A stretch of 64,000 nucleotides of DNA from an uncultured virus (IMG/VR IMGVR_UViG_3300011006_000550) (IMGVR_UViG_3300011006_000550); one strand, 5' to 3'. Shown: positions 261 to 23,841, counted from the first letter of the stretch. The notes: generated from the sequence alone by a model not told the origin. Made by a program: numbers and translations.

Positions 261-944
261 ATGAAACAGACAAACAATAATCAGACAGATTTCTTGCTCA
301 ATGCTTTTGAGCGTATCAACAAGTCTTCTCAAGAAGCCATTGACTTTATGCGTAACAAAAAGAATATGCAAGAAAAGGCAGGCCCACAGCCACAGGCTAT
401 TGACCTCGGCCTTCCTTCTGGTACACTTTGGGCTGACCGTAACGTTGGCGCAACATCACCAGAAGATGTTGGCTTGTATTTCTCTTGGGGTAATGTAGAA
501 GGTCATGCTTTTGGTACTGACTATGACTTCTACGGAGATTACGACAACACTCCTGGTTCAAAACTTCGTTCTGACATTGACGCAGAGCATGACGCAGCGA
601 CAGCCAATCTCGGTGAGCCATGGAGAATGCCAACAAAAGAAAATTTCGTTGAGCTTTACGAAAATTGTACGCATGAGTTCTGTTCTCTTAATTGCTATAG
701 AGGAATGAAGTTCACTTCTAAGATCAACGGCAACTCTATATTCTTCCCTTGCTCCGGCTACGGCCATGGCTCGTCTTGGAACCTCCGCGGCGGCAATGGC
801 CACTACTGGTCTGCATCGTTCTACTCGGCAGTCTACGCTCGGTACTTGGACTTCAACAGTGGCGGTGTCGGCCCGCAGGACATCAACTACCGGTACTACG
901 GCTTCGCGGTGCGCCCGGTTCAGACTTCTTTCGCCAAAAAGTAA
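261..944 (+). CDS. DGR target protein 1 (remote); DLGLPSG-type domain with C-terminal variable region, probably CLec-like
   Basis: DLGLPSGTLWADRNVGA...WRMPT...SIFFPCSG...GFAVRPV; 3' end matches the template repeat except at adenines. Confidence 0.9.
   Translation: MKQTNNNQTDFLLNAFERINKSSQEAIDFMRNKKNMQEKAGPQPQAIDLGLPSGTLWADRNVGATSPEDVGLYFSWGNVEGHAFGTDYDFYGDYDNTPGSKLRSDIDAEHDAATANLGEPWRMPTKENFVELYENCTHEFCSLNCYRGMKFTSKINGNSIFFPCSGYGHGSSWNLRGGNGHYWSASFYSAVYARYLDFNSGGVGPQDINYRYYGFAVRPVQTSFAKK
741..923 (+). repeat. DGR variable repeat VR1
   Basis: 183-bp ungapped match to the reverse complement of 21753-21935 with 13 mismatches, all at template A (8 T, 3 C, 2 G). Confidence 0.96.
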
Positions 945-950
945 CCCATT

Positions 951-999
951 CAAAGTCAGCCCCAAGCCACTCCCCAAGAGTGGCCCAAGGCTGACTTTG
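951..999 (+). promoter_or_regulatory. post-VR1 two-stem hairpin (candidate DGR target-recognition element)
   Basis: CAAAGTCAGCC-ccaa-GCCACTC-cccaa-GAGTGGC-ccaa-GGCTGACTTTG. Confidence 0.8.
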
Positions 1000-1016
1000 C
1001 AAAACAGCACCGAAAT

Positions 1017-1238
1017 ATGAAACTGTGCAAGGTAGATACTCACAGACTCTGGCTGAGTAACAGAGAAGCAGCCAAATATCTCGGAGTCAGCAAAGACTGG
1101 CTCAAGGATCGTCGTCTCGATGGCACACTGCATTACTCGAAGGTCGGAAACACAATCTTCTACATCAAGTCGGAGATTGATAATCTGATCAGAGAAGGTG
1201 CAGTGTCAGGAAAAGACTTATTCAAACATACATCATAA
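1017..1238 (+). CDS. excisionase-like helix-turn-helix protein
   Basis: WLSNREAAKYLGVSKDWL...YSKVGNTIFYIKSEID matches the MerR/Xis-type HTH pattern. Confidence 0.8.
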   Translation: MKLCKVDTHRLWLSNREAAKYLGVSKDWLKDRRLDGTLHYSKVGNTIFYIKSEIDNLIREGAVSGKDLFKHTS

Positions 1239-1344
1239 ACGAGGCCAAGAAATGTCGTGAGACATAGCCCTCAACCAATGACAAAGTAATAGTTCATAGG
1301 CTTGCAATGCCCGCTGAGACAGTTCGCATTGCTTTTTACAAAAT

Positions 1345-1530
1345 GGAAGAGTAGCTCAGTTGGTTAGAGCGCATGTTGATGGAAAGACGGGAGATCGACA
1401 ACTCCCCTGCGCGTAGGCATATCAGTCAGACCTACAAGCGGTAGTTGGCCTGAGATTGGTCTTGTGATAAGATAGAGGAGAAAATATTCCATCAATATGA
1501 GTGTCGCAGGTCCGAGTCCTGTCTCTTCCC
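1345..1530 (+). ncRNA. tRNA-like RNA with a ~100-nt insertion in place of the anticodon loop
   Basis: acceptor GGAAGAG/CTCTTCC, D arm GCTC-AGTTGGTTA-GAGC, T arm GCAGG-TCCGAGT-CCTGT, 13-bp stem CATGTTGATGGAA/TTCCATCAATATG enclosing 1385-1486. Confidence 0.75.
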
Positions 1531-1707
1531 CTCAACAAAAAGAGTTCTTTGACTTATTGATACAACAAAGATACGAAAGAAGTTAGGATGAAATTGATTC
1601 ATCAAGTTTTTAACCCAATATAAGCCCTGAAAAGGACAGGGCGGGGTGAAAGTCCCCACGAACGAGTTATACCAAATTGCAATACTGCCCCTCTTGTAGG
1701 GGCAATC

Positions 1708-1811
1708 GGGAACATAGCTCAGTGGTAGGAGCCGCAGGAAAAAGCTGTTGATGTTTGCCATATAAAACAAGATACCTGTGTGTGTCGGTGGTTCGATTCC
1801 ACCTGTTCCCT
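1708..1811 (+). ncRNA. tRNA-like RNA with an enlarged (~36 nt) anticodon loop
   Basis: acceptor GGGAACA/TGTTCCC, D arm GCTC-AGTGGTAG-GAGC, stem CGCAGG/CCTGTG, T arm GGTGG-TTCGATT-CCACC. Confidence 0.75.
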
Positions 1812-1830
1812 CTAAACCTAATTAAAGAAT

Positions 1831-2001
1831 ATGCAGATGGAGATCCCTATTTCAAAGACCAATTTTGAGAAGATGATGATTCTCATAGACAAAGCCTGTA
1901 CGATCATCAAGTCAGGCAATCCGAAGCCGAAGGAGTACAACGTGGCCCGCCAGCTATATCAAATCAAGAAGCAAATCGAGAAAAAGAATGGCAAAGGATG
2001 A
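1831..2001 (+). CDS. small hypothetical protein (56 aa; not in the ORF track)
   Basis: MQMEIPISKTNFEKMMILIDK...KKNGKG; AT-rich leader, overlaps the start of the next gene. Confidence 0.55.
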   Translation: MQMEIPISKTNFEKMMILIDKACTIIKSGNPKPKEYNVARQLYQIKKQIEKKNGKG

Positions 2002-2206
2002 AGCGCATTGTTGCATCGACTGTGCAAGGGCACAGATATTCCAGTATGACTTCGATCCGATTATTGCAGAGTGCTTCGATGGTCAGAGAAACGTAGCACG
2101 CTATCCTGTGCTCTGCAATAGCTTCAAAGGCTTGGAAACATTGGATAAGAAAGAAAAGAGATTCATACGCTGCATAGAGAATCGAAAGAAGAAAATCGGA
2201 TTTTAA
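1988..2206 (+). CDS. small Cys-rich hypothetical protein
   Basis: CxxC near the N-terminus; co-oriented in the operon. Confidence 0.55.
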   Translation: MAKDEAHCCIDCARAQIFQYDFDPIIAECFDGQRNVARYPVLCNSFKGLETLDKKEKRFIRCIENRKKKIGF

Positions 2207-2217
2207 CAAACAGATAT

Positions 2218-2973
2218 ATGTATGAATACGAAGAAACTTTATTCGGAGTGGATATGCGCCATCGGCCACCACTCACTATCATGCCAACAGAAGAGCATGG
2301 TTGGGGAGGCAGTCACGGAAGACTCGCCTATTCCCAGATGAATCGATCCCAAGAATGGAACTACAGCGAATACGCTGTGAGCACCATGGGACTGATGCCA
2401 AAGAATTACGTCATCGTCAATGCAAGCGAGGTGAACATTAATAGGGAATCAGCCTTGAAGGTCTGCAAGGGCCGTGTCGCTATCCCCGTTAAGGAGTTTG
2501 CCCGTCAGAAACGTCTCACTCTCAAAGAACAATGGGAGCTGATGAATCCGCAATGGGTAGGTACATTCTTTGGTAATCTTGGTGACGATCCATATAGGAG
2601 CCGGAGAAAGACGCTCGAAGATGCAATGTCCGAAGCCGTTGGTCAAAATCGCCTTGACGAGTTCATGAAACAGTTCTGGTCTGCAAAGCACGGACATAAG
2701 GCTGCAGTCGAACGACTTGAACGTAGGGCAACAGAACTCGAACGACGAGGCAAAGAACTCTACAGGGAATGTCTGAGGCTAAACAATCAGATCAGCAAGA
2801 TCGAGAGCGACATCAACAAAGGTCTGCTCGACTTCTATCATCTTCAAGGTCTCAATGCTCATGAGTATCTGAATGAGCTGAGAGCAAACAGACGTACTGT
2901 AAGATGGGAAAGTATTGAGGCTTCAAACAAGGCAAAACGAATTAGGGAATATCTTAACTCAATAACTTACTGA
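2218..2973 (+). CDS. hypothetical protein with C-terminal coiled coil
   Basis: 251-aa ORF tightly packed in the operon. Confidence 0.7.
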   Translation: MYEYEETLFGVDMRHRPPLTIMPTEEHGWGGSHGRLAYSQMNRSQEWNYSEYAVSTMGLMPKNYVIVNASEVNINRESALKVCKGRVAIPVKEFARQKRLTLKEQWELMNPQWVGTFFGNLGDDPYRSRRKTLEDAMSEAVGQNRLDEFMKQFWSAKHGHKAAVERLERRATELERRGKELYRECLRLNNQISKIESDINKGLLDFYHLQGLNAHEYLNELRANRRTVRWESIEASNKAKRIREYLNSITY

Positions 2974-2976
2974 GCT

Positions 2977-3690
2977 ATGCTTCTACCGACAATGACACAT
3001 GAGGAAGAGCGTTCTGAGATCCTGAAAGATCTGCCGAACGTTGAACGATGGGATCAGCATCGTTGGAAAGACTACCGCAGAATGTCTCTCAAGATGAAAG
3101 ACTTTCCTAAGTATGTCTTCACCGAGTATGTCAGTCCGAGGAAGAATCGTTGGCTTGTAAGCACTAAGTTTCGGGGAAAGGATGATTACTGCTCCACCTT
3201 TGGAGTGCTGCAGGTCCTGAATGGTTTGGTTTTGCACCAGGTGTTCTGTTCACTCTACGAAGATAAGTTCTCTACGGTTTGCACGTTCATTCCGCATTTC
3301 TTCGACAGATACCGCCAGTACAACAAGCTCGACATCAAGGGTATTCCACTGATAAAGCAGATGCTCAAAGATGACTGCTCTTTCAATCTTGATCGGACGC
3401 AGGAAATATCCGGGCGCAAGGAACTCGACAAAGAAAACAACGTCCACTGTTGCATGCGTCAGGGAGTCGGACTTGGATATGAACTGGGACACAGACACTA
3501 TCTGATAAAGACATTTGTGACATACGATATGGCGCGTGGCCGTCAGAAGAAAATCTTCGAGGCTACACGCGATGACTTTTCAAGGAAACTAACCGACAAG
3601 CCACAGCCAGTACCGAGGCTTGGCCAGTCGTCTTTCCTGCTCTCAGAAGAAGAAATAAAGAAAGCCATGAAGAAATATGGCAAATTATAA
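2977..3690 (+). CDS. hypothetical protein
   Basis: 237-aa ORF starting 3 bp after the previous stop. Confidence 0.7.
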   Translation: MLLPTMTHEEERSEILKDLPNVERWDQHRWKDYRRMSLKMKDFPKYVFTEYVSPRKNRWLVSTKFRGKDDYCSTFGVLQVLNGLVLHQVFCSLYEDKFSTVCTFIPHFFDRYRQYNKLDIKGIPLIKQMLKDDCSFNLDRTQEISGRKELDKENNVHCCMRQGVGLGYELGHRHYLIKTFVTYDMARGRQKKIFEATRDDFSRKLTDKPQPVPRLGQSSFLLSEEEIKKAMKKYGKL

Positions 3691-3716
3691 GTTTAACAAT
3701 TCTAATTCAACAGCTT

Positions 3717-4089
3717 ATGCAAAGAGTATTAGGACAGGACATCAAGGATTTGGAAGAGAGGAAAAATTTCCTCATTGACAATGCTGATGGTGTCGAAGAA
3801 ATGGACTACCACAAGTCCTATGAGTCTGAGGAATCAGATCTCTGATTTCAAGGAAGAAATCAACAAGGAACTAAAGCCTCTCAAGGAGGAAGTGAAGAAT
3901 CTCCGTGAAGATCTCAAGTCAAAGGGCCGAACGGTCCATGAGAAGGTCTATCGTTTCCTCGATGAACAGGAACGCATGGTTGGCTTCTACAACTCCGAGG
4001 GAATACTTGTTTCCTCACGTCCAGCACGTCGTGAAGAATTACAGAAGACTGTCTTCGCAGACTTGCGAAAAGAAGGTACTAACAATTAA
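3717..4089 (+). pseudogene. frameshifted or internally deleted phage gene (or assembly error)
   Basis: ATG at 3717 reads MQRVLGQDIKDLEERKNFLIDNADGVEEMDYHKSYESEE and stops at 3843-3845; the protein-like continuation QISDFKEEINKELKPLK...RPARREELQ is in another frame. Confidence 0.55.
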
Positions 4090-4100
4090 AATTCAAAAAC

Positions 4101-4850
4101 ATGGATCCAGAGAAACTGAACATTTTCTTCCCAGAAGGGAAAGACAAGGCAGAGTTAGTCATCCGTCAGGTGAATGACGAAGTAAAGAAAGAGCTTCCAA
4201 TCCTTGAGCCTGACAAAGTATCAATCAGTGGCAACATTACGGCCATCTTCGATTTCCTTGAGAAACGTTGGAATGCAGAAGACAAGCAGATCGACCACTG
4301 CCGTACCCACATTCTTGTTGATCGCGACAATCTCATGATGACTCTTATTGTCAATGAGACTGACTCACGCAACAAGAAGAATGTGGTCGGCACCATTCAG
4401 CTCTCTCGCCAGTACACTGCTTTTGGTGTCAATAAGAAGTTGTGGGAGTCAACTGAACTCGGAAACTTCTTCCGCATCAACCGCTCGTACTTCGAGAAGA
4501 AGGAAACTAATATGTCTCTTGTCAATCTGCTCAAGCGTTTCACAGCCAAGGTAAACACTGAGGTTGAGCGCGAAGAGAAGGATAACGGCTCGGTTACAGA
4601 CGTATATCGTAAGGTTGTCGATTCCAATCTTCCAGAGGCTTTCGCTGTTAGGATTCCTATCTTCAAAGGTTCTCAGCTGGAAGTATTCACTATCGAGATC
4701 ATTGCTCATGTCGAGGGAAAACATGCCGTGCTCGAACTGATTTCTCCTGATGCAGAGGCAATCGTTGAAGAAGTTCGCGACAAACTCATTGACGAACAGA
4801 TTGCAAAGATCCGAGAGCTGGCACCCGAGATCCCCATCATCGAGGTATGA
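4101..4850 (+). CDS. conserved hypothetical phage protein
   Basis: 249-aa ORF with good codon usage in the recombination operon. Confidence 0.75.
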   Translation: MDPEKLNIFFPEGKDKAELVIRQVNDEVKKELPILEPDKVSISGNITAIFDFLEKRWNAEDKQIDHCRTHILVDRDNLMMTLIVNETDSRNKKNVVGTIQLSRQYTAFGVNKKLWESTELGNFFRINRSYFEKKETNMSLVNLLKRFTAKVNTEVEREEKDNGSVTDVYRKVVDSNLPEAFAVRIPIFKGSQLEVFTIEIIAHVEGKHAVLELISPDAEAIVEEVRDKLIDEQIAKIRELAPEIPIIEV

Positions 4851-5023
4851 GAAGGGACGGCCAGTATTACTATGCCCCACATCGCAGTATGTGGGGCATT
4901 TGGAAACACCATGAAGACGGCAACGGCTGCAGTCATGGTGATTTCCTAAAAGATGTACCAACTAAAGAAGAAGCGTCCAAAGAGGTCTATCGCCTCAACG
5001 GATGGAAACCAAAAACAAATTAA
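4847..5023 (+). CDS. small hypothetical protein (58 aa; not in the ORF track)
   Basis: ATGA overlap with the upstream stop; MRRDGQYYYAPHRSMWGIW...EVYRLNGWKPKTN. Confidence 0.6.
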   Translation: MRRDGQYYYAPHRSMWGIWKHHEDGNGCSHGDFLKDVPTKEEASKEVYRLNGWKPKTN

Positions 5024-5026
5024 TGA

Positions 5027-5902
5027 ATGGATAACATTTTAGAAACATTGAAGACTGCTTCACATGAGCAGATTCCAGACATCGCACACGAGAAGTTTGT
5101 GGCTGTCTATTCGCAGAAGTTCGGTCCTGAGAAGGCCGAGGCATTCTTTGAAGAGCAGAAGAATCTCTTCATCAATGAGCTTGTATATGGATCATACAAG
5201 GATTTCTTGAAGCAAGCAGATGGAATGTCTATCTACTTTGCTTTCCTGTTCCTGGCTATCAACGGCCTGTCTCTCGAAAAAGGTACGACCACCACTTGTT
5301 ACCTTGAGTGCCGCCGCATCAAGATTGGCGAGGATCCGAATCGCAAGAATGCCAAAGGCTATCCCGAAGCGATCTATCAGTCTAACGCTGTCATCACCAT
5401 CACGGGCTACGGTGAAATTATCCTTCGTCAGCGGGCCAAGCAGATCCGCTCTGTTGACTCCCCGAAAGTCGTTTACGACTGCGACACGTTCCGCTATGGT
5501 GAGAACGATGGCCATCCTACGCTGACATGGGAGAAATGCCTACCACGTCCGCAAGGTTCAAGGATCGTCGCCTGTTATGTCCGCATCATCAAGAACGATG
5601 GTTCCGTTGACTATTTTGTTCTTGACACTGACGAGATCCAGCGTCTCAAGCAGTACTCAGGCAAATCCAACTGGGGCAAGGCGAATGCGCTCTACGGTAA
5701 GGAAGAGGATTGTTCCGATATTGATACGGGATTCCTCAAATCCAAGACCGTAAAGCACGCTTTCAAGGGTTATCCCAAACTCAGCATCGGTGCCGGAGGT
5801 GCCTTTGAGTCTGATAAGGACATCGATCAGACAGAGCCGATGCCCGAACAGCCGCAGGGTGTTCAGACTGAGACTGGCGATATTGATCCATTTAACAGTT
5901 AG
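5027..5902 (+). CDS. RecT/Redbeta-like single-strand annealing protein
   Basis: AINGLSL...GYGEI...IRSVDSPKVVYDCDTF...KTVKHAFK pattern with an acidic tail; exonuclease two genes downstream. Confidence 0.75.
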   Translation: MDNILETLKTASHEQIPDIAHEKFVAVYSQKFGPEKAEAFFEEQKNLFINELVYGSYKDFLKQADGMSIYFAFLFLAINGLSLEKGTTTTCYLECRRIKIGEDPNRKNAKGYPEAIYQSNAVITITGYGEIILRQRAKQIRSVDSPKVVYDCDTFRYGENDGHPTLTWEKCLPRPQGSRIVACYVRIIKNDGSVDYFVLDTDEIQRLKQYSGKSNWGKANALYGKEEDCSDIDTGFLKSKTVKHAFKGYPKLSIGAGGAFESDKDIDQTEPMPEQPQGVQTETGDIDPFNS

Positions 5903-5906
5903 TATC

Positions 5907-7112
5907 ATGGCAGAAAATCAATTACAGGTAATTGTTCAGCAATCTGCCGAGGTCACGAAAAATGTGGCCTCCATCAAGACGGACATCACCAACGCTATCC
6001 GCGAGAATAACACTTCTCTGCAGAACTGCATCAAGGCCGGTGAGGCCCTGCTTGCTCAGTCTGGTGAAATGTCCGACGAGCTTGATGCTCAGATTGCTTC
6101 TTTCATCAAGAAAGCATCTGTCACCCAAAAGGCAATGACAGAGCGACGAAAGGGTGTGACTCAGGTGTTCGACCTCGTAAAGTCTGGCTTCACGAAGATG
6201 GAGAATCTTCTTGATAAGAAGTCCGAGGAATCCATCATCTATAAGTTACAGAAGAAGCGCGACGAATACGCAGCCTATAAGCTCGAAATCCAGCGCAAGG
6301 AAGAAGAGAATCGCAAGCGACTGGCACGTATTGAGGCCGCTAAGACTCAGCTACACGACGATGTGATCTCTGTCTGCAATCAGATCGTGACAGAGAAGAC
6401 ATCACAGGCCCTCGACCAACTCAACGACAAATTCCGTCTTCTTACCATCGACAATGCAGAAGTCGTAAAGAAGGAGATTCAGGATTTTGAGACTAAGCTC
6501 GACCTCGCTCATATCCTCGCAGACCGTAAGCCGTCTGTCTCTCAGGAGGTATCGGCCGAAGACATTTCAGCTATCATGCGTGCCGCCTATAAGGAGTGTG
6601 CAGAAGGACTTATCAAGTCCTATGCCGACTCCGTTTCTCAGGCCAAGCAGGATATTCTTGATACCTTCGACTCTAAGATTGCAGAACTGCTGTCAATCAA
6701 GAATACAGCCGACGAAGAGGAGCGCAAGCGCAAGGAAGCTGAACTCAAAGCCGCCGAGGAAGCTGCTGAGAAAGAACGTCAGGCCAAGGCCGAGGAAGAA
6801 AAGAAGAAGCGAGAGGAAGAGGAACGTCTTCGCAAGGCGCAGTCTCAGTCTCAGTCGCTCTTTGACCAGACTCCAACAATTTCTGCACCTGTCAAGGCAA
6901 AGGTTTCACACCATATAGAGATTGATGATCCTAAAGGATATATCGCTATCATGCAGATGTGGTGGACTCATGAAGGTTCAACTTTGTCTATCGAAGACCT
7001 TGCTAAGAAACTTGGATTCATGGTGAAGGCTTGCGAAAAGTTAAAGAACAAGGAAGACGTTTCGGTTACTGATCCTAACGTCCACTATGTCGAAGACATT
7101 GTAGCTAAGTAG
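5907..7112 (+). CDS. coiled-coil protein of the recombination module
   Basis: likely start MAENQLQ at 5907; long E/K/A-rich heptads. Confidence 0.75.
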   Translation: MAENQLQVIVQQSAEVTKNVASIKTDITNAIRENNTSLQNCIKAGEALLAQSGEMSDELDAQIASFIKKASVTQKAMTERRKGVTQVFDLVKSGFTKMENLLDKKSEESIIYKLQKKRDEYAAYKLEIQRKEEENRKRLARIEAAKTQLHDDVISVCNQIVTEKTSQALDQLNDKFRLLTIDNAEVVKKEIQDFETKLDLAHILADRKPSVSQEVSAEDISAIMRAAYKECAEGLIKSYADSVSQAKQDILDTFDSKIAELLSIKNTADEEERKRKEAELKAAEEAAEKERQAKAEEEKKKREEEERLRKAQSQSQSLFDQTPTISAPVKAKVSHHIEIDDPKGYIAIMQMWWTHEGSTLSIEDLAKKLGFMVKACEKLKNKEDVSVTDPNVHYVEDIVAK

Positions 7113-7113
7113 T

Positions 7114-7779
7114 ATGGATCCGTATTACTCTCGAAGTGAGGTCAGCAACTCTGACCTTACTTCACTCAAACTACAGCTTCATCCTCAGTTGGATTTCGTC
7201 AAGCCGAAAGACAAGAAGAAAGCATTTCACCTTGGTACACTCGTTGATGGACTTGTCACTGAGCCTAAGAACTGCAACCATTTCCGCTATCTCGTTGGTG
7301 ACGAAAAGTACACCAAAGAGGAATGGGAGTGGGGAAAGAAACAGCTCGATAAGCTCCGCAAGGCTTCAACGAAAGACCAGTTCCTTGCTTTCGTCCTCGC
7401 TAATGCCGTTGGTCAGAAGGTCTTTTCAAATCCATGCCAGCACTTTGATGTGGGATGCTACAGCTTCTCTCTGCCCACCAGGTGTAAGTTCGACTGGCAC
7501 CTTGGCCTTTTCGGTGGCGATCTCAAGACGGTCACTGCCACCACGCAGGATCAGTTTGAGGCCGCAGTAGATTTCTTCGACTGGGACAGAAGCCGTGCAT
7601 TTTATATGGACCTCACTCATTCCCTTGATCCTCGTCTCGGGAATCAGGATTTCATATATGCCGTTTCAAAGACCACGAACAAAGTCTTCTTCAAGAAGAT
7701 TATCCGTGACGATGAAACCTACTTGAGAGGAAAAGAAAAGTATCTCGAATTAGCCTTCAAATATTGGCTATTCGTGTAG
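7114..7779 (+). CDS. PD-(D/E)XK exonuclease, RecE C-terminal/DUF3799-like
   Basis: YYSRSEVSNSDL...FHLGTLVD...RCKFDW...GGDLKT motifs; near the RecT-like gene. Confidence 0.75.
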   Translation: MDPYYSRSEVSNSDLTSLKLQLHPQLDFVKPKDKKKAFHLGTLVDGLVTEPKNCNHFRYLVGDEKYTKEEWEWGKKQLDKLRKASTKDQFLAFVLANAVGQKVFSNPCQHFDVGCYSFSLPTRCKFDWHLGLFGGDLKTVTATTQDQFEAAVDFFDWDRSRAFYMDLTHSLDPRLGNQDFIYAVSKTTNKVFFKKIIRDDETYLRGKEKYLELAFKYWLFV

Positions 7780-7831
7780 TCTCGTATGCTGCCGTGCTAC
7801 GGCAGCTCCTACAAACCAATTCTTATTTAAT

Positions 7832-15462: not shown

Positions 15463-15684
15463 ATGGCAAAGATTAAAGCAGATTTCTCGTCAATCATTAC
15501 GATGGCGGGGCCAGTGAAATTCTATAAGAATCCGTGTCCTCATGGCACGAAAGGTATGTTTAATAAGGTGGCGTATGTGGGATCATCCGACTGTCAGATG
15601 TGTCCCAACTTTGGAGATAAGAAACAGCATCTTATTGAGGGGACAGATCTTGTTACTGAGGTTGTAGATTGTAATCATGAATGA
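15463..15684 (+). CDS. small Cys-containing hypothetical protein
   Basis: CPH...CQMC; coupled to neighbours. Confidence 0.6.
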   Translation: MAKIKADFSSIITMAGPVKFYKNPCPHGTKGMFNKVAYVGSSDCQMCPNFGDKKQHLIEGTDLVTEVVDCNHE

Positions 15685-15908: not shown

Positions 15909-16007
15909 CTATGATAAAGATAATTTTTGGAGTAATCATCGGCTTCGTTGCTACTTTGGTGCTGGAAGCCATTGCTATGTATGTAATATTTTTAAAGAGA
16001 TAAACAA

Positions 16008-16427: not shown

Positions 16428-16816
16428 TACAAGGATTCTCAGAACAAACAGAACCTCTGACTGAGTATGAAGAGCAGACTCTTCTGCCTCAGCTCGTCAG
16501 AGGTCTTCGGACCAAAGTAGGTAGGGCTATGTCCGTTACGAATAAGGCTATCGTACGTGGCATGAAAGCAAACCTGAATCTTAGTGTGTCTGAGCCTCGC
16601 GTGCGTAAGATTATCAATCATATCAGAAACAATGATCTTGTGCCGTGCCTCATAGCAACCTCTCAGGGATATTATATCGCTGAGTCAGAGCAGGAACTTA
16701 AGGAATACGAAGATTCTCTCTTGGGCCGTGAAGAGGCCATCCATTCCGTCCGTATGTCAATACAGCGGCAACGTATTAGGAAATATCATCATCAGCAACA
16801 AGAACTATTTCAATGA
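16424..16816 (+). CDS. putative winged-HTH DNA-binding protein
   Basis: VSEPRVRKIINHIR...LIATSQGYYIA. Confidence 0.65.
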   Translation: MIQGFSEQTEPLTEYEEQTLLPQLVRGLRTKVGRAMSVTNKAIVRGMKANLNLSVSEPRVRKIINHIRNNDLVPCLIATSQGYYIAESEQELKEYEDSLLGREEAIHSVRMSIQRQRIRKYHHQQQELFQ

Positions 16817-17241
16817 AAGAGAAAGTGAAAGTAGAGCCGGAGGTAGGCTTGATACCTCAGCCGAAAACCATGTACTGGTATGTCAGGTCTTGTATGCAGA
16901 CACACCGTTTCAAGGTCATGGAATGTGAATGGATCGGCGGTATGTCCGATCTGCTTCGTCTCGCAAAGGGCAATGTATGTCTCAAGAAAGAAGATGCAGA
17001 GTCTCTTTGCCATCAGCTCAACTGCCGTCTGGAAATGCTCACCAGAGCATGTGAAAACGCACATCAGAAGGAACAGCTTGAAGAGGAGAAAGCCCGTAAG
17101 AAGGCAGAGGCGGCAGAGCGAAAGCGTATCCGTGACTTAGAGAAGAAGAAACTCGATAAGGAGGCAAAGAAGAAAGCCATCCTTCAAGCTGAGTTTTCCA
17201 AGAAAAAGAAGAAAAGTCCACACCCGGATATTATTGTATAA
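16813..17241 (+). CDS. hypothetical protein with basic coiled-coil tail
   Basis: 142-aa ORF, ATGA-coupled. Confidence 0.65.
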   Translation: MKEKVKVEPEVGLIPQPKTMYWYVRSCMQTHRFKVMECEWIGGMSDLLRLAKGNVCLKKEDAESLCHQLNCRLEMLTRACENAHQKEQLEEEKARKKAEAAERKRIRDLEKKKLDKEAKKKAILQAEFSKKKKKSPHPDIIV

Positions 17242-17260
17242 CTAATTAAACTATTGTATC

Positions 17261-17467
17261 ATGGATCAAAAAGAGAAAGAAGAAAATGTGAAGAATGCAG
17301 TCCACACTCTTGTTGAGAAACTTGAGGAAGCTGCCAACATCGCACGTCGTAACTACGATGATGCAAAGGCATGTCTTGACGAGGAAGCCGCCAAGAAGTA
17401 CGAAAACCTGTCTATGAGCATCTGCTTCGACTTGCTCAAGGCATCAGAACTTGATGACACGCTCTGA
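17261..17467 (+). CDS. hypothetical protein
   Basis: 68-aa ORF. Confidence 0.6.
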   Translation: MDQKEKEENVKNAVHTLVEKLEEAANIARRNYDDAKACLDEEAAKKYENLSMSICFDLLKASELDDTL

Positions 17468-17469
17468 TT

Positions 17470-17778
17470 ATGGCTCTCGGAAAGAAACGGCCTGTAACTA
17501 AACAGAAGTTTCAGGTCAACAGGAACGTCATAGCCGCTATCGTCTCGGTCATCGTCATTGCCTGTCTGTATATGTGTTCCCATAAGAAGGAGAGCACAGT
17601 AACGGCAACACGGTTTCTCGACGACTACGGCCATCTGATGCGCATTGAGGAGAAAGACGGTGTAAAGAGTATCGTCGATGATCCTGAATGCGAGAAGTGT
17701 CAGCAGATCCTACACGGGGTGATGTTTAACGCTGTCGTTTGCGCCTTCGACTCTTTGGAGGTGCGCGTGGTCGATTGA
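17470..17778 (+). CDS. single-TM hypothetical protein
   Basis: hydrophobic VIAAIVSVIVIACLY; last gene of the rightward arm. Confidence 0.6.
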   Translation: MALGKKRPVTKQKFQVNRNVIAAIVSVIVIACLYMCSHKKESTVTATRFLDDYGHLMRIEEKDGVKSIVDDPECEKCQQILHGVMFNAVVCAFDSLEVRVVD

Positions 17779-17784
17779 ACAAAG

Positions 17785-17822
17785 AGGCGGTGCCTATCCA
17801 TCTTCGGACTGGCACCGCCTTT
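17785..17822. terminator. terminator-like hairpin between convergent arms
   Basis: AGGCGGTGCC...GGCACCGCCT inverted repeat at the convergence point. Confidence 0.65.
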
Positions 17823-17867
17823 GAAAAATTACCAACTATTCTAACCAAAAAATCCGTTTTGCACAGA

Positions 17868-18392
17868 CTACCGCTGTAGCCTTCCGATTATCATCCTAAT
17901 AACCATAAATACTAATATGAAAATAATCACACCTATTATCGCATCGGCAAAGAACGTGGAGATCCTTTGCTTGATGCTCTGCTTTTTCTCCACTTCCTTG
18001 ATCACGATCTTTGGAACTGAATCCGTTTTGATGAAGGTATCAGTCTTAACAGATTGCAGTTTTGAAAGCTCACGCTGTAGCTTATCGTTCTGGATAAGCC
18101 AGGCCCTTTCCATATTCTTCAACTGAACCCCGTACTTGGCCATCGTCGCAGAGTCAACCTCCTTGATCAGCGTTGTCTCATGGCTGATGACGGAATCCGT
18201 CTGATGAACTGAGTCCGTATGCCAGTGGTGCTCGGTATGCGTTTCCACCACCGGCACGTACTTTGTCTTGCAGCTCGTAAAGGCCGCAAGAATGAGCAAG
18301 GCGATAATGCCTAAGAAGCAGTAGAAGCAGATCTTCATCTGTGGTCCGCTTCTCTGCAGTTTCCTGTTGTAATAATCTCTGTCATCCCTCAT
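17868..18392 (-). CDS. putative unimolecular spanin (lipoprotein with C-terminal TM helix)
   Basis: lipobox-like LAAFTSC, C-terminal IIGVIIFILVFMVI; follows holin and lysin candidates. Confidence 0.6.
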   Translation of the reverse strand: MRDDRDYYNRKLQRSGPQMKICFYCFLGIIALLILAAFTSCKTKYVPVVETHTEHHWHTDSVHQTDSVISHETTLIKEVDSATMAKYGVQLKNMERAWLIQNDKLQRELSKLQSVKTDTFIKTDSVPKIVIKEVEKKQSIKQRISTFFADAIIGVIIFILVFMVIRMIIGRLQR

Positions 18393-18395
18393 AGC

Positions 18396-18854
18396 TTATT
18401 CTATTTTGATGAAGATTAAACCTTTCGCATCTTGTAACTTTGAGTACAGCTTGAGAAATGTCTGAGTAGAGTTGATCACTTTACCCACGACTTTGTTCTG
18501 ACCAACGAGGATGCAGCCGGAACTATCCGCTGCCGTGTTCCCGATGTGTATCAGGATCCCTTCAAAGCAAGGCACGTTCAACAGACGAGGCAGATAGCCG
18601 TTGCAGAAAGCGTACTGTGCCTTCTTCTTGAATCGCTCTGACTGCACACCCAGCGTCACCTGGTAGCGGCCCGTAGGAATGGCGGTCTCGTTCGGTATCT
18701 TCTTTCGTTTGTTGGCAGCGTAGGCATCGCCCTGCTTCATCCCTCTGTCACAGTCCTCGATGGTGTCACAGAAATACTCTCCGTCTATGTAAAGACGGCC
18801 AATAGTATATGTTTTCTTTCTTGCTATTCTTTTCAGATATAAATCCATATTCAA
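18396..18854 (-). CDS. DUF5675-like protein, putative endolysin
   Basis: YTIGRLYIDGEYFCDTIED...TAIPTGRY...GILIHIGNTAADSSGCILVG; lysis-cassette position. Confidence 0.7.
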   Translation of the reverse strand: MNMDLYLKRIARKKTYTIGRLYIDGEYFCDTIEDCDRGMKQGDAYAANKRKKIPNETAIPTGRYQVTLGVQSERFKKKAQYAFCNGYLPRLLNVPCFEGILIHIGNTAADSSGCILVGQNKVVGKVINSTQTFLKLYSKLQDAKGLIFIKIE

Positions 18855-19432
18855 TCCTCCATGTTTTGCTCTTCGTCGTAGATCTCAGGTCTGTGATGGT
18901 GATGGTGCCTTTCATGTCCCAAGTCTTCTACGGCTTCACCTATTTCGTTACTCTTTACCTTAATCAGCTTGCCTAAGAATCTGACAAATGCACGCCAGCC
19001 ATCATCCATGCTGATCTCAACACCAAGCTTCACGTAAGCGATGTGTCCGATGATAGAAGCAATCTCACAGCCACAGCCTATACCCAAGCCGATGGCGGCA
19101 GTCCATACATGCGAGCAAATATCCATCGGCTCCGTGATGGCAAGACCGATCAAGGCACCAACGACAAGGTACGTCAGGTAGTCAACAATCTTGTTGGCCG
19201 TCCTGCGTCCCGCTCTCGACTTGTGCCATTTCCACTTGTCTATGCCTATCTCGTTGCCTTCCTTCTTGGCTTTTTCGTAACGCATACTGCTTTCCGAGTA
19301 ACCCCACCAGAGATCGGCCAGTATCAGTGCAAACGAGCAGATGATCATATAACGAAGGTCATACACCACAGCCAGCAGCTCAGCACTGATACTGGCCCAC
19401 ACTATTCCTTTTGGTCCTACTGTTGAATCCAT
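18851..19432 (-). CDS. putative holin
   Basis: several TM segments; LILADLWWG...SRAGRRTANKIVDY holin-like pattern. Confidence 0.7.
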   Translation of the reverse strand: MDSTVGPKGIVWASISAELLAVVYDLRYMIICSFALILADLWWGYSESSMRYEKAKKEGNEIGIDKWKWHKSRAGRRTANKIVDYLTYLVVGALIGLAITEPMDICSHVWTAAIGLGIGCGCEIASIIGHIAYVKLGVEISMDDGWRAFVRFLGKLIKVKSNEIGEAVEDLGHERHHHHHRPEIYDEEQNMED

Positions 19433-19440
19433 ATATCCAA

Positions 19441-19947
19441 TCAGTTAAAGATTAAACTTCCAGTTAATGACAGCCAGCACAGGGCTTCGGCAATGAATAC
19501 GCCTTTACGATCAACGGCCTTTGCAAGCCATCCCTGCGGCTGAATGTACAGGCTTCCACACAGGAAAGCCATCACCATCCATACCGTAAGCCAAATGGGA
19601 TTAAGGATCAGCACGCACAGCTGCGAGAACACACCCGCCGTTATGCCGAGCACGTTGTGGGCTGTATTCTTCTCGTTTCTCACCAATGGCATTGCCCCAG
19701 TGAACAGGATCGCTGTTGCAAAGCCATGAGCCACAGCCCCATAATCTTCTGGCATGATGTCAAACAGGGCAGGGGTGAGCGTATAGGTAGCGGCCCATAC
19801 CCATATCGTCCACAGCCATTGGCTGCGTCGCGGCAGGTCATACACCATCGACGAGATGCTGATCGGCAATTCCCGCTTCCTCCAGATGGTTATCCCCGTA
19901 TAGAGGATAACCAGGAGGATGCTTACTATGAGTAATGCGGAAATCAT
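19441..19947 (-). CDS. multi-pass membrane protein
   Basis: about five hydrophobic segments. Confidence 0.7.
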   Translation of the reverse strand: MISALLIVSILLVILYTGITIWRKRELPISISSMVYDLPRRSQWLWTIWVWAATYTLTPALFDIMPEDYGAVAHGFATAILFTGAMPLVRNEKNTAHNVLGITAGVFSQLCVLILNPIWLTVWMVMAFLCGSLYIQPQGWLAKAVDRKGVFIAEALCWLSLTGSLIFN

Positions 19948-19952
19948 AGGGC

Positions 19953-20516
19953 TTACTCTTCTACTGCATCAGCACTCTCATTGTTCTCAGGAACAGGGAA
20001 AGCTGCCTGATACGGGGTGAAATTGATGGTGTCCTTTCTGATCCAGCCTGCTCCGAGACACGTCTCGATGTAGTCGCAGACAGCGTAGTAGAAGTTGTTC
20101 AGCTCGTCGAGTGTGGCGAATGTGCGGTACTTTGCGTTGCCTTCCACTTCACCTATCTTGAATTTCTTCGGTGTATAGTTCTCTTCGCCCTTCTTGTCGG
20201 CCAGTCGCTGTGCCTCAGAGAAGTTGCGCTGATTCTCAGCAGACAGCCAAACCTTGATGTTGTCGCCGTTGTCATCTTCCCACTCAAAGCCGCAGAGGAT
20301 CTTTTCGTCGGTCTGTGCGTCGATGTCGGCGATGATGGCCTTCTTCACGTCCTCGAAACTGATGGTAGAGTGCTGCTTCTTTGGCAGATAGACCTCGATC
20401 CATGTTGCCTTCTCATTGTCAACGGCTTCAAAACCGTAGCTGATGACGATACGTGTGCCCTCTGTACGTACGGGGGCGAACTCACTGATAAGTCCAAATA
20501 CTTTGTTCATAATCAC
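19953..20516 (-). CDS. tail-fibre-associated protein (DUF4376-like)
   Basis: IDAQTDEKILCGFEW...VWLSAENQRNF; follows the DGR/tail-fibre block. Confidence 0.55.
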   Translation of the reverse strand: MIMNKVFGLISEFAPVRTEGTRIVISYGFEAVDNEKATWIEVYLPKKQHSTISFEDVKKAIIADIDAQTDEKILCGFEWEDDNGDNIKVWLSAENQRNFSEAQRLADKKGEENYTPKKFKIGEVEGNAKYRTFATLDELNNFYYAVCDYIETCLGAGWIRKDTINFTPYQAAFPVPENNESADAVEE

Positions 20517-20530
20517 TAAATTTTAATTTG

Positions 20531-21715
20531 TTAATAATTGAATGAATGTCTCTCTGTTATCTTGGTCAGTCCGTCGTCGAAGACTCCGAGCCTGAGTATT
20601 TCCTTTCTCATGAACAGCTTGCGCCTGATATTGTACGATGCAGTATGCTGGAAGATTCCAAGATAGGAGTTGATGCTTCTCAGCACCTTCTTCGGCTTCG
20701 TGAAGTCGAGCAGCAACAGCTTCTTCATGATCCTCACAAGCGAGTGACGGCTGATGTATATGCGCCAGGGCTTGATATACGATCCAAGGAACTCTACACC
20801 GCGATGCACCTCCGAGATCGTCAGCTTTCCCTTGTGCAGTTCCAGGCCAAGCTCTTCTCTCAGGAACCGTTCTATCTCTGGTACCAGACTCAGAAGCCAG
20901 TCCTTGTCTGCCGACACTACGGCCCCATCGTCCACATAACGACCGTAGTACTTGCATTTCAGCACACGCTTCATAAACTGGTCGAAGGGATTCATATACA
21001 CGTTCGAGAACAGCTGACTCGTCAGGTTGCCTATCGGCAGTCCGAGACCTTCTATCAGGTGAAGCATCGACTTTGCTGGATCCAGCCCGTCCCAGTCTTC
21101 GGGATCCCCGCAGATGATACAATTCTCTTTCGGATCGAGCGTCACGATGATCTCCGTCAGGTAATACAGAAAGTCCATGTCGAGCCTGTCTCTCCACAGT
21201 GCAGGATGATCCTTGCTGATACGGTGTGTTGACATTTTTCTCAGCGATTCCAGAGCGATCTCCAGCAACCGTTTCCGTACGATGTGCATGAAGTAACCCC
21301 TGATGTCTAAGTGCATCACGTAGCATTTCCGCTGCCAGTTGTGCGATTCCTTCCTGCAGAAGTCTTCCAGTCGGTGTATGCCGTAGTGCGTGCCACGTCC
21401 CTTGATGCAGCTGTACGAGTCGATGATGAAGGTCCTCTCGTACAGGTCGTGCGTATAGTTGAAGTACAGATGATGCACTATCCTGTCCCTGAACATTGCA
21501 GCGAAGATCTCCCTCTTCTTGGGATAGTCCACGATGAAGCATTTCGACGGGAGAGGCTTGTAGCGGCGATAATACAAATCGTCGCATAGTTCGTCCATAT
21601 TCTTTTTCAGGTCTTTCGCCCATTGCTTCACGTATGAGCGATTGGCCTTGTGCTTCCGTGCGTCGTAGTAGGCAACATACAAGTCGAACAGAAGTCTCTC
21701 CCGTGTAAGAGTCAT
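20531..21715 (-). CDS. DGR reverse transcriptase
   Basis: KKREIFAAMFRDRIVHH, LDIRGYF, GLPIGNLTSQLFSNVY (DGR-type GxxxSQ), YGRYVDD; starts 37 bp downstream of the template repeat. Confidence 0.96.
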   Translation of the reverse strand: MTLTRERLLFDLYVAYYDARKHKANRSYVKQWAKDLKKNMDELCDDLYYRRYKPLPSKCFIVDYPKKREIFAAMFRDRIVHHLYFNYTHDLYERTFIIDSYSCIKGRGTHYGIHRLEDFCRKESHNWQRKCYVMHLDIRGYFMHIVRKRLLEIALESLRKMSTHRISKDHPALWRDRLDMDFLYYLTEIIVTLDPKENCIICGDPEDWDGLDPAKSMLHLIEGLGLPIGNLTSQLFSNVYMNPFDQFMKRVLKCKYYGRYVDDGAVVSADKDWLLSLVPEIERFLREELGLELHKGKLTISEVHRGVEFLGSYIKPWRIYISRHSLVRIMKKLLLLDFTKPKKVLRSINSYLGIFQHTASYNIRRKLFMRKEILRLGVFDDGLTKITERHSFNY

Positions 21716-21752
21716 GCTTCTCTGTATTTAAAAGGATGATTTCAGTTGAGTG

Positions 21753-21935
21753 CTGAACCGGGCGCACCGCGAAGCCGTTGTACCGGTTGTTGTTGTTCTG
21801 CGGGCCGACACCGCCACTGTTGAAGTTCAAGTTCCGAGCGTTGACTGCCGAGTTGAACGATGCAGACCAGTAGTTGCCATTGCCGCCGCGGTTGTTCCAA
21901 GACGAGCCATTGCCGTTGCCGGAGCAAGGGAAGAA
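21753..21935 (-). repeat. DGR template repeat (TR)
   Basis: 183 bp with 16 AAY codons and 39 adenines; non-A positions identical to VR1, VR2 and the visible ends of VR3. Confidence 0.96.
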
Positions 21936-22086
21936 GGCTTTTCGGTCGCCGCCTTTTACGACTGCCATAATGGGTTGCGCTGAGCAAGACAAAACAGCAT
22001 CTTTCATTTTTCCCGCATTTCGAGAATGCAGGACGGGCGACCTATGAACTTCTTTCTGAACCATCCTTATGGGTTTTACAAATTCA

Positions 22087-22641
22087 TTAAAACATAGCAG
22101 CTACTTGCTGTCTCAACTGGCGCATGAACTCGTAAGCCTCCATTGGAGATTTCGACTCAAGCGGGAACGAGATTATCCGTCCGAGAACGTCCGACATTCT
22201 CATCACTCTTGGAGCGGCATCAGACACCTCACGGTCTTCTCGCTTCGTCTTCTTCTGATCGTTCATCGGAAGCGATTCTTTCCATTCGTCAACCTGAGCG
22301 CGAACCTCGTCATACGTGGCTTCACCGAAGTCAACGTTTACAGTCACGTCGATCTGATTGTCACCGACGGGATTGAACGTCACCGTTCCATCGTTGGGAA
22401 CATACTTACCCAATGATGCAACGGGAAATCCCACCCATGCCTCAACGTAGTTATCCTTCAACCGCTTGGCCGACACGTTCAGCGGTTTATCCTTGGCAAG
22501 TCCGATAGGGAACTTTGTCAGGAGCCAGGCCGACCAGTCGTGAGCACGGTAGAAGTTGCCGTCAAGAAGCAGATGGACTATTCCGAACTGCTCTTTCGTT
22601 TCTCTGTTGCTTTCCAGCTGTGCAATTTCTGCTATTGTCAT
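22087..22641 (-). CDS. DGR accessory protein, MutS domain I-like (MSL type)
   Basis: HLLLDGNFYRAHDWSA...VGFPVASLGKY resembles the MutS-I G(D/N)FYE...GFP pattern; lies between target and TR. Confidence 0.7.
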   Translation of the reverse strand: MTIAEIAQLESNRETKEQFGIVHLLLDGNFYRAHDWSAWLLTKFPIGLAKDKPLNVSAKRLKDNYVEAWVGFPVASLGKYVPNDGTVTFNPVGDNQIDVTVNVDFGEATYDEVRAQVDEWKESLPMNDQKKTKREDREVSDAAPRVMRMSDVLGRIISFPLESKSPMEAYEFMRQLRQQVAAMF

Positions 22642-22677
22642 TTTTTCTCTCTTTAATTACTTTATTCCCTCTCAATG

Positions 22678-22727
22678 CGGAGTGTGCCTTGTGGCCGCTT
22701 GGGGAGCGGCCTTGGTGGCACACTCCG
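22678..22727 (-). promoter_or_regulatory. post-VR3 two-stem hairpin
   Basis: minus strand CGGAGTGTGCC-accaa-GGCCGCT-cccca-AGCGGCC-acaa-GGCACACTCCG. Confidence 0.8.
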
Positions 22728-22772
22728 AATGATTGGGTTGGTTTGTTCTCTCTTGTTTAGTCAAGAAAGAAG

Positions 22773-23841
22773 TTACTGAACCGGGCGCACCGCGAAGCCG
22801 TAGNNNNNNNNNNNNNNNNNNNNNNNNNNNNNNNNNNNNNNNNNNNNNNNNNNNNNNNNNNNNNNNNNNNNNNNNNNNNNNNNNNNNNNNNNAGCCGGAG
22901 CAAGGGAAGAAGAGAAGATTACCGTTGATCTTCGACTTCAAATACAAGCCTAATACGCCGTTTACCGTCACGCGCTTATCTGCTGTTGCAGAGTCTATGA
23001 CGGTGCCGTTAGCGTAGATGAAGTCGCAGTTATCAAACAGCTCTTGATACTCTGCCGTTGTCGGCATGCGCCAAGGAGCACCCAGATTCACACGGGCAGC
23101 GTCCTGAGAAGGAGCGAGGCTTGCCGTGATGCCACAGCCAGGAGTCTGACCGTAGATCGAATCGGGCTTATAGCCGTTCTCGGCCTGATTCTTCGAGTTG
23201 TCCCATGTACCGAAGTCGTGGTTGAAACTGCTATTGTCTTTCGGGTTGAACATCTGAGTGTTACCCCAAGAGACAAACGAGCACTCATACTGGAACTCCG
23301 AAGCTGCGAAGCCGTTGGCCTGAGTCACGTCGATATTCTTCTTTGCCCAGAGCAAACCAGAGGGCAGACCCATATCTACGTACAGGTCTTCCTGTGCTGA
23401 TGTCTTCTCCTGTCCGAGAATGCCGACGATGTTCCAGTTTGTGCCGTCGTACTGTAACTGTACTACGGTACGAGCCTTTACAACTCCGGCTTGCAGGGTG
23501 TTACCCAAGATCTTGATGGGCTTGGCACCCGTGCTGTTCACGTTCAGCTTTGCTCCTGCTACGGCAATGGCAGACGTAAACAGAATGCTCACAATGCCGT
23601 TTTTCAGAAGGATGAAGTCAGTGATGGCTACGGTCTTCGCCTGTGTCGTAGCTGCAGTTTCACACGTACCCATGCCGTTACCAGCCTTGGCCATGTCACG
23701 TACCAGCTGCTGAGCAGGGTATTTTCCTGCGGGCGTGCCGTCAGGACCGAAGATCATGACCGTCTGATTGGCTGCAGGAGCACTACTTGGCAATCCAGCC
23801 TGTACCGCTTTCAATACGTTTGCTGTTGAAATTGTGTCCAT
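22773..23841 (-). CDS. DGR target protein 3 (adjacent); tail-fibre/receptor-binding-like
   Basis: N-terminal fibre-like domain (AKLNVNSTGAKPI...YDGTNW), DMGLPSGLLWA domain; likely true end ...YGFAVRPVQ-TAA at 22773-22775; spans an N gap. Confidence 0.85.
22776..22911 (-). repeat. DGR variable repeat VR3 (interior unresolved; Ns at 22804-22892)
   Basis: both flanks match TR ends, each with an A>T change beside the gap. Confidence 0.9.

Follow-up and report, generated by a model that had tools for sequence, protein, structure and literature searches.

A diversity-generating retroelement with two probable remote targets, besides its tail-module target, in a predicted Quimby-like gut phage

The DNA described here is a stretch of 64,000 nucleotides (the window, analysed at its full length) from an uncultured virus, IMGVR_UViG_3300011006_000550, and it carries a diversity-generating retroelement (DGR) composed of a template repeat (TR), a reverse transcriptase (RT) gene and three variable repeats (VRs) in three target genes. 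The TR (21753-21935, minus strand) is 183 nt long, contains 39 adenines and lies 37 nt upstream of the start of the RT gene (20531-21715, minus), which encodes a protein of 394 aa. VR1 (741-923, plus) and VR2 (14950-15132, plus) are likewise 183 nt long and align to the TR without gaps, with 13 and 22 mismatches respectively. They belong to target 1 (261-944, plus, 227 aa) and target 2 (14404-15156, plus, 250 aa). VR3 (22776-22911, minus) is 136 nt as written, matches the TR at its ends only, and belongs to target 3 (22773-23841, minus), a gene of the tail module. An accessory gene (22087-22641, minus, 184 aa) is located between VR3 and the TR, giving the cassette order target-accessory-TR-RT. 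The original prediction, that a single DGR serves three genes of which two are remote, on the opposite strand and inside the early, replication and methylase arm, is borne out on both counts, by the annotation of the arm and by the TR-VR pattern and target-site hairpins described below.

All 13 mismatches in VR1 and all 22 in VR2 fall on adenines of the TR, as originally reported with the same coordinates and counts; given 39 adenines in 183 nt, the chance of an adenine-only pattern is 1.9e-9 for VR1 and 1.7e-15 for VR2. The match to both ends of VR3 also holds, its first 18 nt and last 26 nt being identical to the TR (100%) and separated by 89 N (22804-22892) that break the gene. VR3 as written is 47 nt shorter than the TR (136 versus 183), and as 47 is not divisible by three, the run of N must be an assembly gap of arbitrary size. 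For the same reason an open reading frame (ORF) called at 22672-23841 is an artefact. The true stop of target 3 is most likely the TAA at 22773-22775, which gives a protein of about 371 aa, and the orthologue in a complete relative (G006, see below) has 372 aa. In the TR, 16 of the 61 codons are AAC or AAT. No further TR-like copy was found within the window, which spans 64 kb of a contig of 107,944 bp.

The VRs share a set of signals at their downstream ends. The last 24 nt, the GC-rich GGCTTCGCGGTGCGCCCGGTTCAG, are identical across the TR and all VRs, and directly behind them stands ACTTCTTTC, which is common to the three VRs and from which the TR diverges. Each VR is followed by a two-tier hairpin, located at 951-999 (plus) after VR1, 15167-15211 (plus) after VR2 and 22679-22726 (minus) after VR3. 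When folded as DNA and compared with 200 shuffles, these reach -20 kcal/mol (z -7.25), -20.4 kcal/mol (z -6.99) and, for the fold of 22679-22775, -25.2 kcal/mol (z -9.7), and not one of the 200 shuffles was as stable in any of the three cases. In each GC hairpin an outer stem of 9-11 bp is separated by an internal loop from an inner stem of 7 bp, which closes on a loop of 5 nt, and the hairpins lie 25-50 nt from the end of the VR. Their stems differ in sequence among the three sites and in relatives. No hairpin follows the TR (fold z +1.1). Across the window and five related contigs (G002, G003, G005, G006 and G009), a two-tier hairpin occurs within 110 nt of 10 of 11 VRs and of none of six TRs, the sole VR that lacks one being an internal VR in G005. 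In the Bordetella phage BPP-1, which like the window has a GC-rich VR 3' end and a downstream hairpin, the portion of Guo et al. 2011 drawn on here (PMC3240598) describes a hairpin or cruciform downstream of the VR that is needed, with the structure of the stem mattering and not its sequence. The hairpins of the window with their differing stems fit this result, although their two-tiered build and their distance from the VR end set them apart from BPP-1. Taken as a whole, the pattern leaves very little doubt that all three genes are true DGR targets.

The motif [ILV]GxxxSQ is a mark of DGR RTs, and the RT of the window carries IGNLTSQ at residue 228 together with YVDD at residue 260. It matches Pfam RVT_1 (E 2e-12) and PHROG 1423 'Reverse transcriptase' (E 5.7e-85). 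Read in the frame of the VRs, the TR itself forms one open frame with the RT gene (a 513-aa ORF, 20523-22064, minus), and the same is seen, at 503-581 aa, in the relatives G002, G003, G004 and G006 and in G001, an IMG/VR provirus record that is 99.96-100% identical to the window over positions 1-48467. This open frame may be a mere inherited consequence of a fixed TR-RT spacer. The accessory protein is acidic (pI 5.17) and gave no sequence match in Pfam, PHROG, NCBIfam or the PDB; an orthologue of 50% identity occupies the same slot in G006. The survey of Wu et al. 2018 (PMC5758913), in the part that bears on accessory proteins, gives Avd as a basic protein of 128 aa present in 74% of DGRs and describes an acidic class, 'CH1', in DGRs lacking avd. 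An acidic product of 184 aa is at odds with the small, basic Avd, and in size, charge and position the accessory protein resembles the CH1 class.

The element recurs in relatives. RTs with 69-88% identity to that of the window were found on nine viral contigs, and TR-like DNA was searched in five records of these RT-sharing contigs. One of them is G006, a complete genome of 75,595 bp with terminal repeats that is syntenic with the window. It carries an adjacent target and, directly after a C5 methylase gene, an orthologue of target 2 with 69% identity including the N-terminus, whose VR differs from the TR at 16 positions, all adenines. Only an adjacent target is present in G003 (109.8 kb), G004 (74.1 kb) and the fragment G002, and the fragment G005 has two targets in tandem. 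Close relatives thus differ in how many targets they have, as Wu et al. note for DGRs in general in the excerpted survey (PMC5758913). A further complete genome found by way of target 2, G009 (135 kb), has a target-2-type VR located 49 kb from its TR and followed by the same hairpin, with 18 mismatches at A and one at C. A target-2-type gene is thus diversified in two complete relatives, at 7 kb and 49 kb from the TR. Mismatches fall on TR adenines at 23/23 positions in G002, 17/17 in G003, 18/19 in G004, 15/16 and 16/16 in G006, 14/14 and 18/19 in G009, and 21/24 and 16/20 in G005. Related phages had been proposed as a place to look for the same three-target layout, and what they show is a part of it: the remote target 2 is there in G006 and G009, and no target-1 orthologue is present in G006.

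Variation in nature can be followed most closely for target 2. Searches at E 1e-5 or better returned 3,779 proteins for target 2 and 7,862 for target 1, in two overlapping sets, and the best 120 relatives of target 2 are mostly 230-270 aa long with 94-100% query coverage. Five of them are 91-93% identical to target 2. In the alignment of these six sequences, 17 of 21 adenine-codon columns vary, as against 2 of 40 other columns of the VR and 12 of 189 columns outside it, and the orthologues of target 2 are hypervariable in nature. In a family alignment of 12 sequences for target 1, adenine-codon columns vary at 17/21, compared with 8/40 elsewhere in the VR and 25/121 outside, which at that divergence is only suggestive, and a scan of genome contigs with the target-1 family returned relatives at 30-42% identity only. 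Because target 1 has no near-identical orthologue, the case for diversification of VR1 rests on the TR-VR pattern, the hairpin and a gap in G001. The assembly gaps lie exactly on the VRs: VR3 is gapped in both the window and G001, VR1 in one of them (N runs in G001 at L004 1308-1320 and L003 1529-1547) and VR2 in neither. Gaps at VRs are consistent with population heterogeneity or with breaks induced by the repeats, and Benler et al. remark in the pertinent passage of PMC8008677 that VRs break contig assemblies.

Assembled Logan contigs of runs X3, X4, X18 and X5 were also compared with window positions 1-20000, a range without the TR and VR3. Contig depth at VR1 is 1441-3267 compared with about 540-640 nearby, and other letters occur at 783/784; both are indistinguishable from misplaced TR or VR3 contigs, and the Logan contigs break inside the TR (joint 923/20000). 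Contigs of the RNA library X18 fall on genes of the early arm, from which transcription of targets 1 and 2 does not follow. In X3, the probable source sample, a major set of contigs has a word depth of about 515-560 and a minor, slightly different set one of about 90-105, so that two related strains appear to coexist there.

Targets 1 and 2 are each composed of a two-helix N-terminus, a linker, disordered in target 2, and a predicted lectin-fold domain, and target 3 of an N-terminal domain of about 150 aa and a likewise predicted lectin-fold domain. The lectin-type domain of target 1 is 64% identical to that of target 2 along its entire length, and that of target 3 is 39% identical to the target-2 domain. 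A model of target 2 (30-sequence alignment, pLDDT 68) has helices at residues 3-14 and 20-35, the linker at 36-54 and the domain at 55-245, with the VR stretch at pLDDT below 50. The model of target 1 is poor (pLDDT 52.6), with helices at 5-21 and 23-36. Compared with 48,161 PDB representatives by VIA-align, the target-2 domain has its best match in Mtd of BPP-1 (1yu0, a weak Z of 4.8), followed by TaqVP (5vf4, 4.5), the C-terminal domain of Lcl (4.3), TvpA (2y3c, 4.2) and then CTLD and FGE folds, all at low Z, and Foldseek of the model against the PDB found nothing at E 1e-3 or better. Pfam Lcl_C matches target 1 at E 3.9e-4 with 21.1 bits, below its cut-off of 34.9; Fib_succ_major matches the homologue P0121 with 19.1 bits, below its cut-off of 33.9; and target 2 has no Pfam hit at E 1 or better.

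The N-termini of both proteins are two-helix segments of about 35 aa, here called the handle, and not fibre-type sequences, in line with the original prediction that targets 1 and 2 lack a fibre domain. A second part of that prediction, that the two N-termini are unrelated, does not hold. The family alignments show the motifs FLLDxFERFGK..ALDFVR and KMQLLKEFGI...VDFCREAY, and when profiles of the N-terminal parts alone were compared by hhalign (8 target-1-type sequences against 27/30 target-2-type rows), they aligned over 28 columns with 97.4% probability and E 1.5e-11. Judged by these profiles, the N-termini are homologous and the proteins paralogous. In the target-2 family 17 positions of the first 35 residues are at least 90% conserved (30 sequences), and an unconserved linker follows. 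A phmmer search of 1.84 billion representatives found the handle on no other architecture, its non-repeat matches being N-terminal in proteins of 47-270 aa. Long matches (1,000-2,122 aa, 4-11 stretches) had raised a helix-turn-helix (HTH) or transposase resemblance for the handle, which was rejected because they are repeats or concatenated IS1595 fragments at about 9 bits per repeat. Pfam returned nothing at E 5 or better for the two N-termini alone, and the ESM Atlas gave no usable match to residues 1-55 of target 2. Neither protein has a signal peptide, as had been foreseen, and no hydrophobic start of the lipobox type or membrane segment was detected in them; the highest Kyte-Doolittle window of 15 aa is 0.41 in target 1 and 1.48 in target 2.

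The surroundings of the two remote genes are those of the early arm. A gene for a C5 cytosine DNA methyltransferase (12738-14375, plus; Pfam DNA_methylase E 8.9e-31) ends 28 nt before target 2, and a gene for an N6/N4 DNA methyltransferase (Pfam N6_N4_Mtase E 3.9e-26) is located at 9204-9992 (plus). Target 1 is followed at once by an HTH_17/excisionase-like gene (1017-1238, plus; Pfam E 5.9e-9). In G006 the slot upstream of the HTH_17 gene is occupied by a KilA-N/ANT antirepressor gene, which is preceded by CI-like repressor and integrase-like genes. A strict Bacteroides-type promoter pattern occurs twice in the window against 0.77 expected, and neither occurrence is near target 1 or 2. In seven loci of viral contigs with full-length homologues of target 2, the homologue is always on the strand of its neighbours. 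In six of these the neighbours are homologues of early-arm genes of the window (SSB, NinB, replication initiator, C5 methylase, exonuclease and pyrophosphatase), and in the seventh the neighbours are unidentified. The orthologue stands directly after the C5 methylase gene in three of the seven (L039, L040 and L045), and in none of the seven is it flanked by a gene of the tail or head.

A wider set of 79 lectin-type loci places the three targets among their relatives, in rough figures, as the flanks of about 6 kb are often cut by contig ends. Thirteen of the 79 gave no motif or odd ORFs. In 39 loci at least 114 aa precede the domain or an extension lies behind it, and an RT is found in the flanks of 24 of these. 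Next to the RT, related viral contigs usually have a target of the target-3 type, in which 134-187 aa precede the DLGLPSG motif. Another 27 loci hold small genes, with at most 91 aa before the domain and at most 305 aa in total, and an RT lies in the flanks of four. Sixteen of the 27 were annotated, of which seven lie among genes of replication or nucleotide metabolism and three have unknown neighbours. The seven genes in replication or metabolism modules belong to other large phages (L054, L104, L107, L108, L110, L117 and L119), and a DGR RT was not detectable in five records with such genes, one of them complete at 101.6 kb. The N-termini of these small proteins of the wider family differ, and the protein at L054 is without an anchor, as only 12 aa precede its domain.

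The phage itself is, on the evidence of its genes and relatives, predicted to be a temperate, Quimby-like phage of Bacteroidales from an animal gut, and its host genus is probably Prevotella. It is read as temperate because its relatives carry repressor and integrase genes. The host is inferred from the names of relatives only, namely a Prevotella communis protein at 60% identity, Bacteroidales metagenome-assembled genomes (MAGs) and Lak Prevotella phages at 36%. In pairwise comparison with isolates of the LoVEphage species the large terminase subunit (TerL) is 49% identical, the portal 41%, the major capsid protein (MCP) 26% and the primase 33%, and 19 of 84 ORFs of the window match the phage BI-TP1, collinearly through the structural module. 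A megablast of window positions 1-24000 against GenBank phages gave no match. Just before its integrase and repressor region, G006 encodes two further proteins (L034 15745-16659 and 16717-17415), one an ArdC-like anti-restriction protein that contains a metallopeptidase domain and the other RadC-like, and the corresponding part of the phage described here lies beyond the window. Other features of the window are a tRNA-Met (CAT) between the head module and the terminase gene (48361-48434, minus), a second Rfam tRNA match of 104 nt (1708-1811, plus) that ARAGORN did not call, and an Rfam match to the type-P5 twister ribozyme (60849-60910, plus; 43.5 bits against a gathering threshold of 37.6, E 9.6e-6). 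An NCBIfam NDM match on the ORF at 24496-25542 was dismissed as noise, as it scores 15.7 bits where the cut-off is 580.

Gut phages with remote DGR targets that appear to be non-structural are already known, and the window has one extra remote target. A distal, opposite-strand and presumably non-structural DGR target beside methyltransferase genes has been published for Quimbyvirus and LoVEphage, as excerpts of PMC8008677 and PMC12629997 relate; the latter adds, in 2025, four further species of prophage in which a distal VR lies close to counter-defence genes, and in the former Benler et al. 2021 proposed a role in phage-host conflict. The likeness is close. These too are temperate phages of Bacteroidales with collinear structural, terminase-portal and primase modules, in which one TR-RT unit serves both an adjacent target of the tail module and a small opposite-strand target amid methyltransferase genes, and the median length of 75.2 kb for Quimby-like phages compares with 75.6 kb for the relative G006. 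They differ from the window in having one remote target instead of two, in coming from the human gut instead of an animal gut and, in the case of Quimbyvirus, in an RT that is split over three frames according to the portion of PMC8008677 consulted for it, the RT of the window being a single ORF. In BI-TP1 the remote VR (62600-62706) lies on the opposite strand at the C-terminal end of gp84 (194 aa), with 12/12 mismatches at TR adenines, compared with 20/22 in the adjacent VR of the Mtd_N-type tail protein gp12. In sequence gp84 has no similarity to target 2 (BLASTP E 0.086, and no tblastn-type match of target 2 in BI-TP1), and the remote targets of the window belong to another lectin-fold subfamily.

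Other systems are more distant. BPP-1 (mtd-avd-TR-brt) has the same order of target, accessory gene, TR and RT and the same adenine-only mutagenesis, but a single, adjacent target and the basic Avd. Non-adjacent targets were counted in 45 of 372 DGRs by Wu et al., who remark on 'many examples' in DGRs associated with phages, at distances of up to 50 kb that are taken to mean the same prophage (PMC5758913); the identity and phage position of these targets are not described in the part of the survey at hand. The tentaclin DGRs of gut phages (Baykov et al. 2023, PMC10743442) likewise use one TR for two lectin-fold targets of different architecture, but there the two targets are part of the DGR cassette itself and are interpreted as receptor binders; in tentaclins the lectin domain is N-terminal and Ig-like domains come after it. 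Cellular DGRs offer a precedent for diversified lectin-fold proteins of conflict or signalling that act inside the cell, although the targets described in the relevant extracts of PMC10907252 and PMC7517822 are bacterial and fused to NTPase, kinase or similar domains, and not small stand-alone phage proteins. Searches of open-access literature turned up no account of the target-2 family, its handle or a three-target Quimby-like phage, though supplementary tables or extended-data figures of PMC5758913, PMC8008677 and PMC12629997 may list such cases.

It is proposed that the TR-RT unit and the acidic, non-Avd accessory protein would make the adenine-mutagenised cDNA of a working DGR, which would replace the three VRs, each marked by its GGCTTCGCGGTGCGCCCGGTTCAG end, ACTTCTTTC and two-tier hairpin. 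Target 3 would be the usual protein of the tail module. Targets 1 and 2 would be small, soluble paralogues in which the two-helix handle and a flexible linker carry a lectin-fold domain with a rewritten C-terminal face, target 1 being located at the start of the early arm by a putative lysogeny-control region and target 2 in one apparent transcription unit with the C5 methylase. The reading favoured, with confidence that is evenly balanced, is that targets 1 and 2 do not belong to the virion, are produced along with the replication and counter-defence genes and have variable host molecules within the infected cell as their binding partners. It is favoured because of the placement in the early arm, the 28-nt gap to the methylase gene, the absence of export signals, the anchor-less relatives and the Quimbyvirus analogue. 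As an idea the intracellular binder is plausible and not new, being already in print for related phages. A more specific version, which we think rather unlikely, is that the two proteins form an early cytoplasmic 'antibody-like' pair whose rewritten faces capture or sense host defence proteins and whose handle couples binding to an effect. If so, the phage would possess adaptive counter-immunity alongside adaptive adsorption, the small remote target of Quimbyvirus, though unrelated, would do the same job, and the lectin genes in the replication modules of DGR-less phages would be its fixed form.

Several points weigh against this interpretation. A module for docking on the virion would be expected to have this same build, a conserved handle with a flexible linker. 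Five to six of the 16 annotated small-gene loci lie beside tail-fibre, tail, tape-measure or terminase genes, and the receptor-binding protein of BPP-1 is, on the account given in part of PMC8008677, the only phage DGR target studied experimentally. The structural support for the lectin fold is weak, with Z below 5 throughout, pLDDT of 68 and 53 and Pfam matches below cut-off or absent. The nearest relative of target 1 is only 65% identical to it, and VR2, which is letter-for-letter identical in the window and G001 and has a strong A-to-G bias, may be static.

The first of these points leads to a possible, if less probable, explanation, in which targets 1 and 2 are accessory adhesins of the virion that happen to be encoded outside the structural module, are docked on the fibre, baseplate or capsid by the two-helix handle and give the particle three independently diversified binding heads. 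The conserved handle with its unconserved linker resembles a docking module and is common to both the target-1 and target-2 families, the three targets have related lectin domains, and the role would be that of the BPP-1 protein. Small lectin-fold genes do stand directly behind a tail-fibre gene in L090, L102 and L103 and near tail genes in L080 and L115, so small size does not exclude a virion role. However, those tail-adjacent proteins have other N-termini and the handle occurs on no other architecture among the representatives searched; the neighbours of target 2 are early-arm genes in six of seven loci and tail or head genes in none, and in the window target 2 begins 28 nt behind a methylase gene.

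It is improbable that VR1, VR2 or both are frozen products of past retrohoming in this strain that are kept for a fixed binding. The observations that would suit such an origin concern VR2 above all. Besides being identical in the window and G001, it is gapless in both assemblies, with VR3 gapped in both and VR1 in one, and 19 of its 22 changes from the TR are A to G (binomial against 1/3, p 4e-7), with six AAC codons turned into GGC, as against 2 of 13 in VR1 (Fisher p 5e-5). The bias was not seen in the remote VRs of G006 and G009 nor in the near-identical orthologues of target 2. An abandoned VR would be expected to accumulate non-adenine divergence, of which there is none, all three VRs retain intact IMH-like ends, ACTTCTTTC and hairpins, and the orthologues at 91-93% identity are hypervariable at adenine codons. 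The identity of VR2 in the two assemblies says little if these stem from one sample; outside the repeats G001 differs from the window only by a 9-bp indel (3834-3842, in the ORF at 3775-4089), which is also the sole difference over window positions 903-22803, and G001 gives weak independent support because it may come from the same sample as the window.

An action outside the cell, after lysis or on the surface of the lysogen, in which targets 1 and 2 would serve as soluble glycan binders, decoys or exclusion factors, is very unlikely. It would agree with a temperate phage, as suggested by the repressor and integrase genes of its relatives, and with a domain akin to the lectin-like Fib_succ_major and Lcl_C domains (weak matches; the Prevotella communis relative is named 'fibrobacter succinogenes major paralogous domain-containing protein'), but neither protein has a signal peptide, a lipobox-type start or a membrane segment, and since the benefit of a released protein is not tied to the genome that encodes the variant, its diversification would be hard to select. 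Finally, an assembly artefact created by four near-identical 183-bp repeats is scarcely credible, even though scaffold gaps coincide exactly with VR3 in the window and with both VR1 and VR3 in G001 and Logan contigs break inside the TR. Order and flanks are the same in the window and G001, remote targets of this kind stand in syntenic context in the complete genomes of G006 and G009, and every VR closes an intact gene in frame and has a hairpin that is unique to it.

What the window adds to the known remote targets is a second, sequence-unrelated large family of them, with a conserved N-terminal handle, a fixed slot behind the C5 methylase gene, two remote copies on one TR and clear target-site hairpins. 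The function of such proteins is open to experiment, since an analogous gene is present in relatives that have been cultured (BI-TP1, PV4-TP1 and the LoVEphage isolates). If targets 1 and 2 are parts of the virion, adhesins can be encoded deep within early operons. If they act inside the cell, DGRs would tune the intracellular conflict between phage and host besides adsorption.

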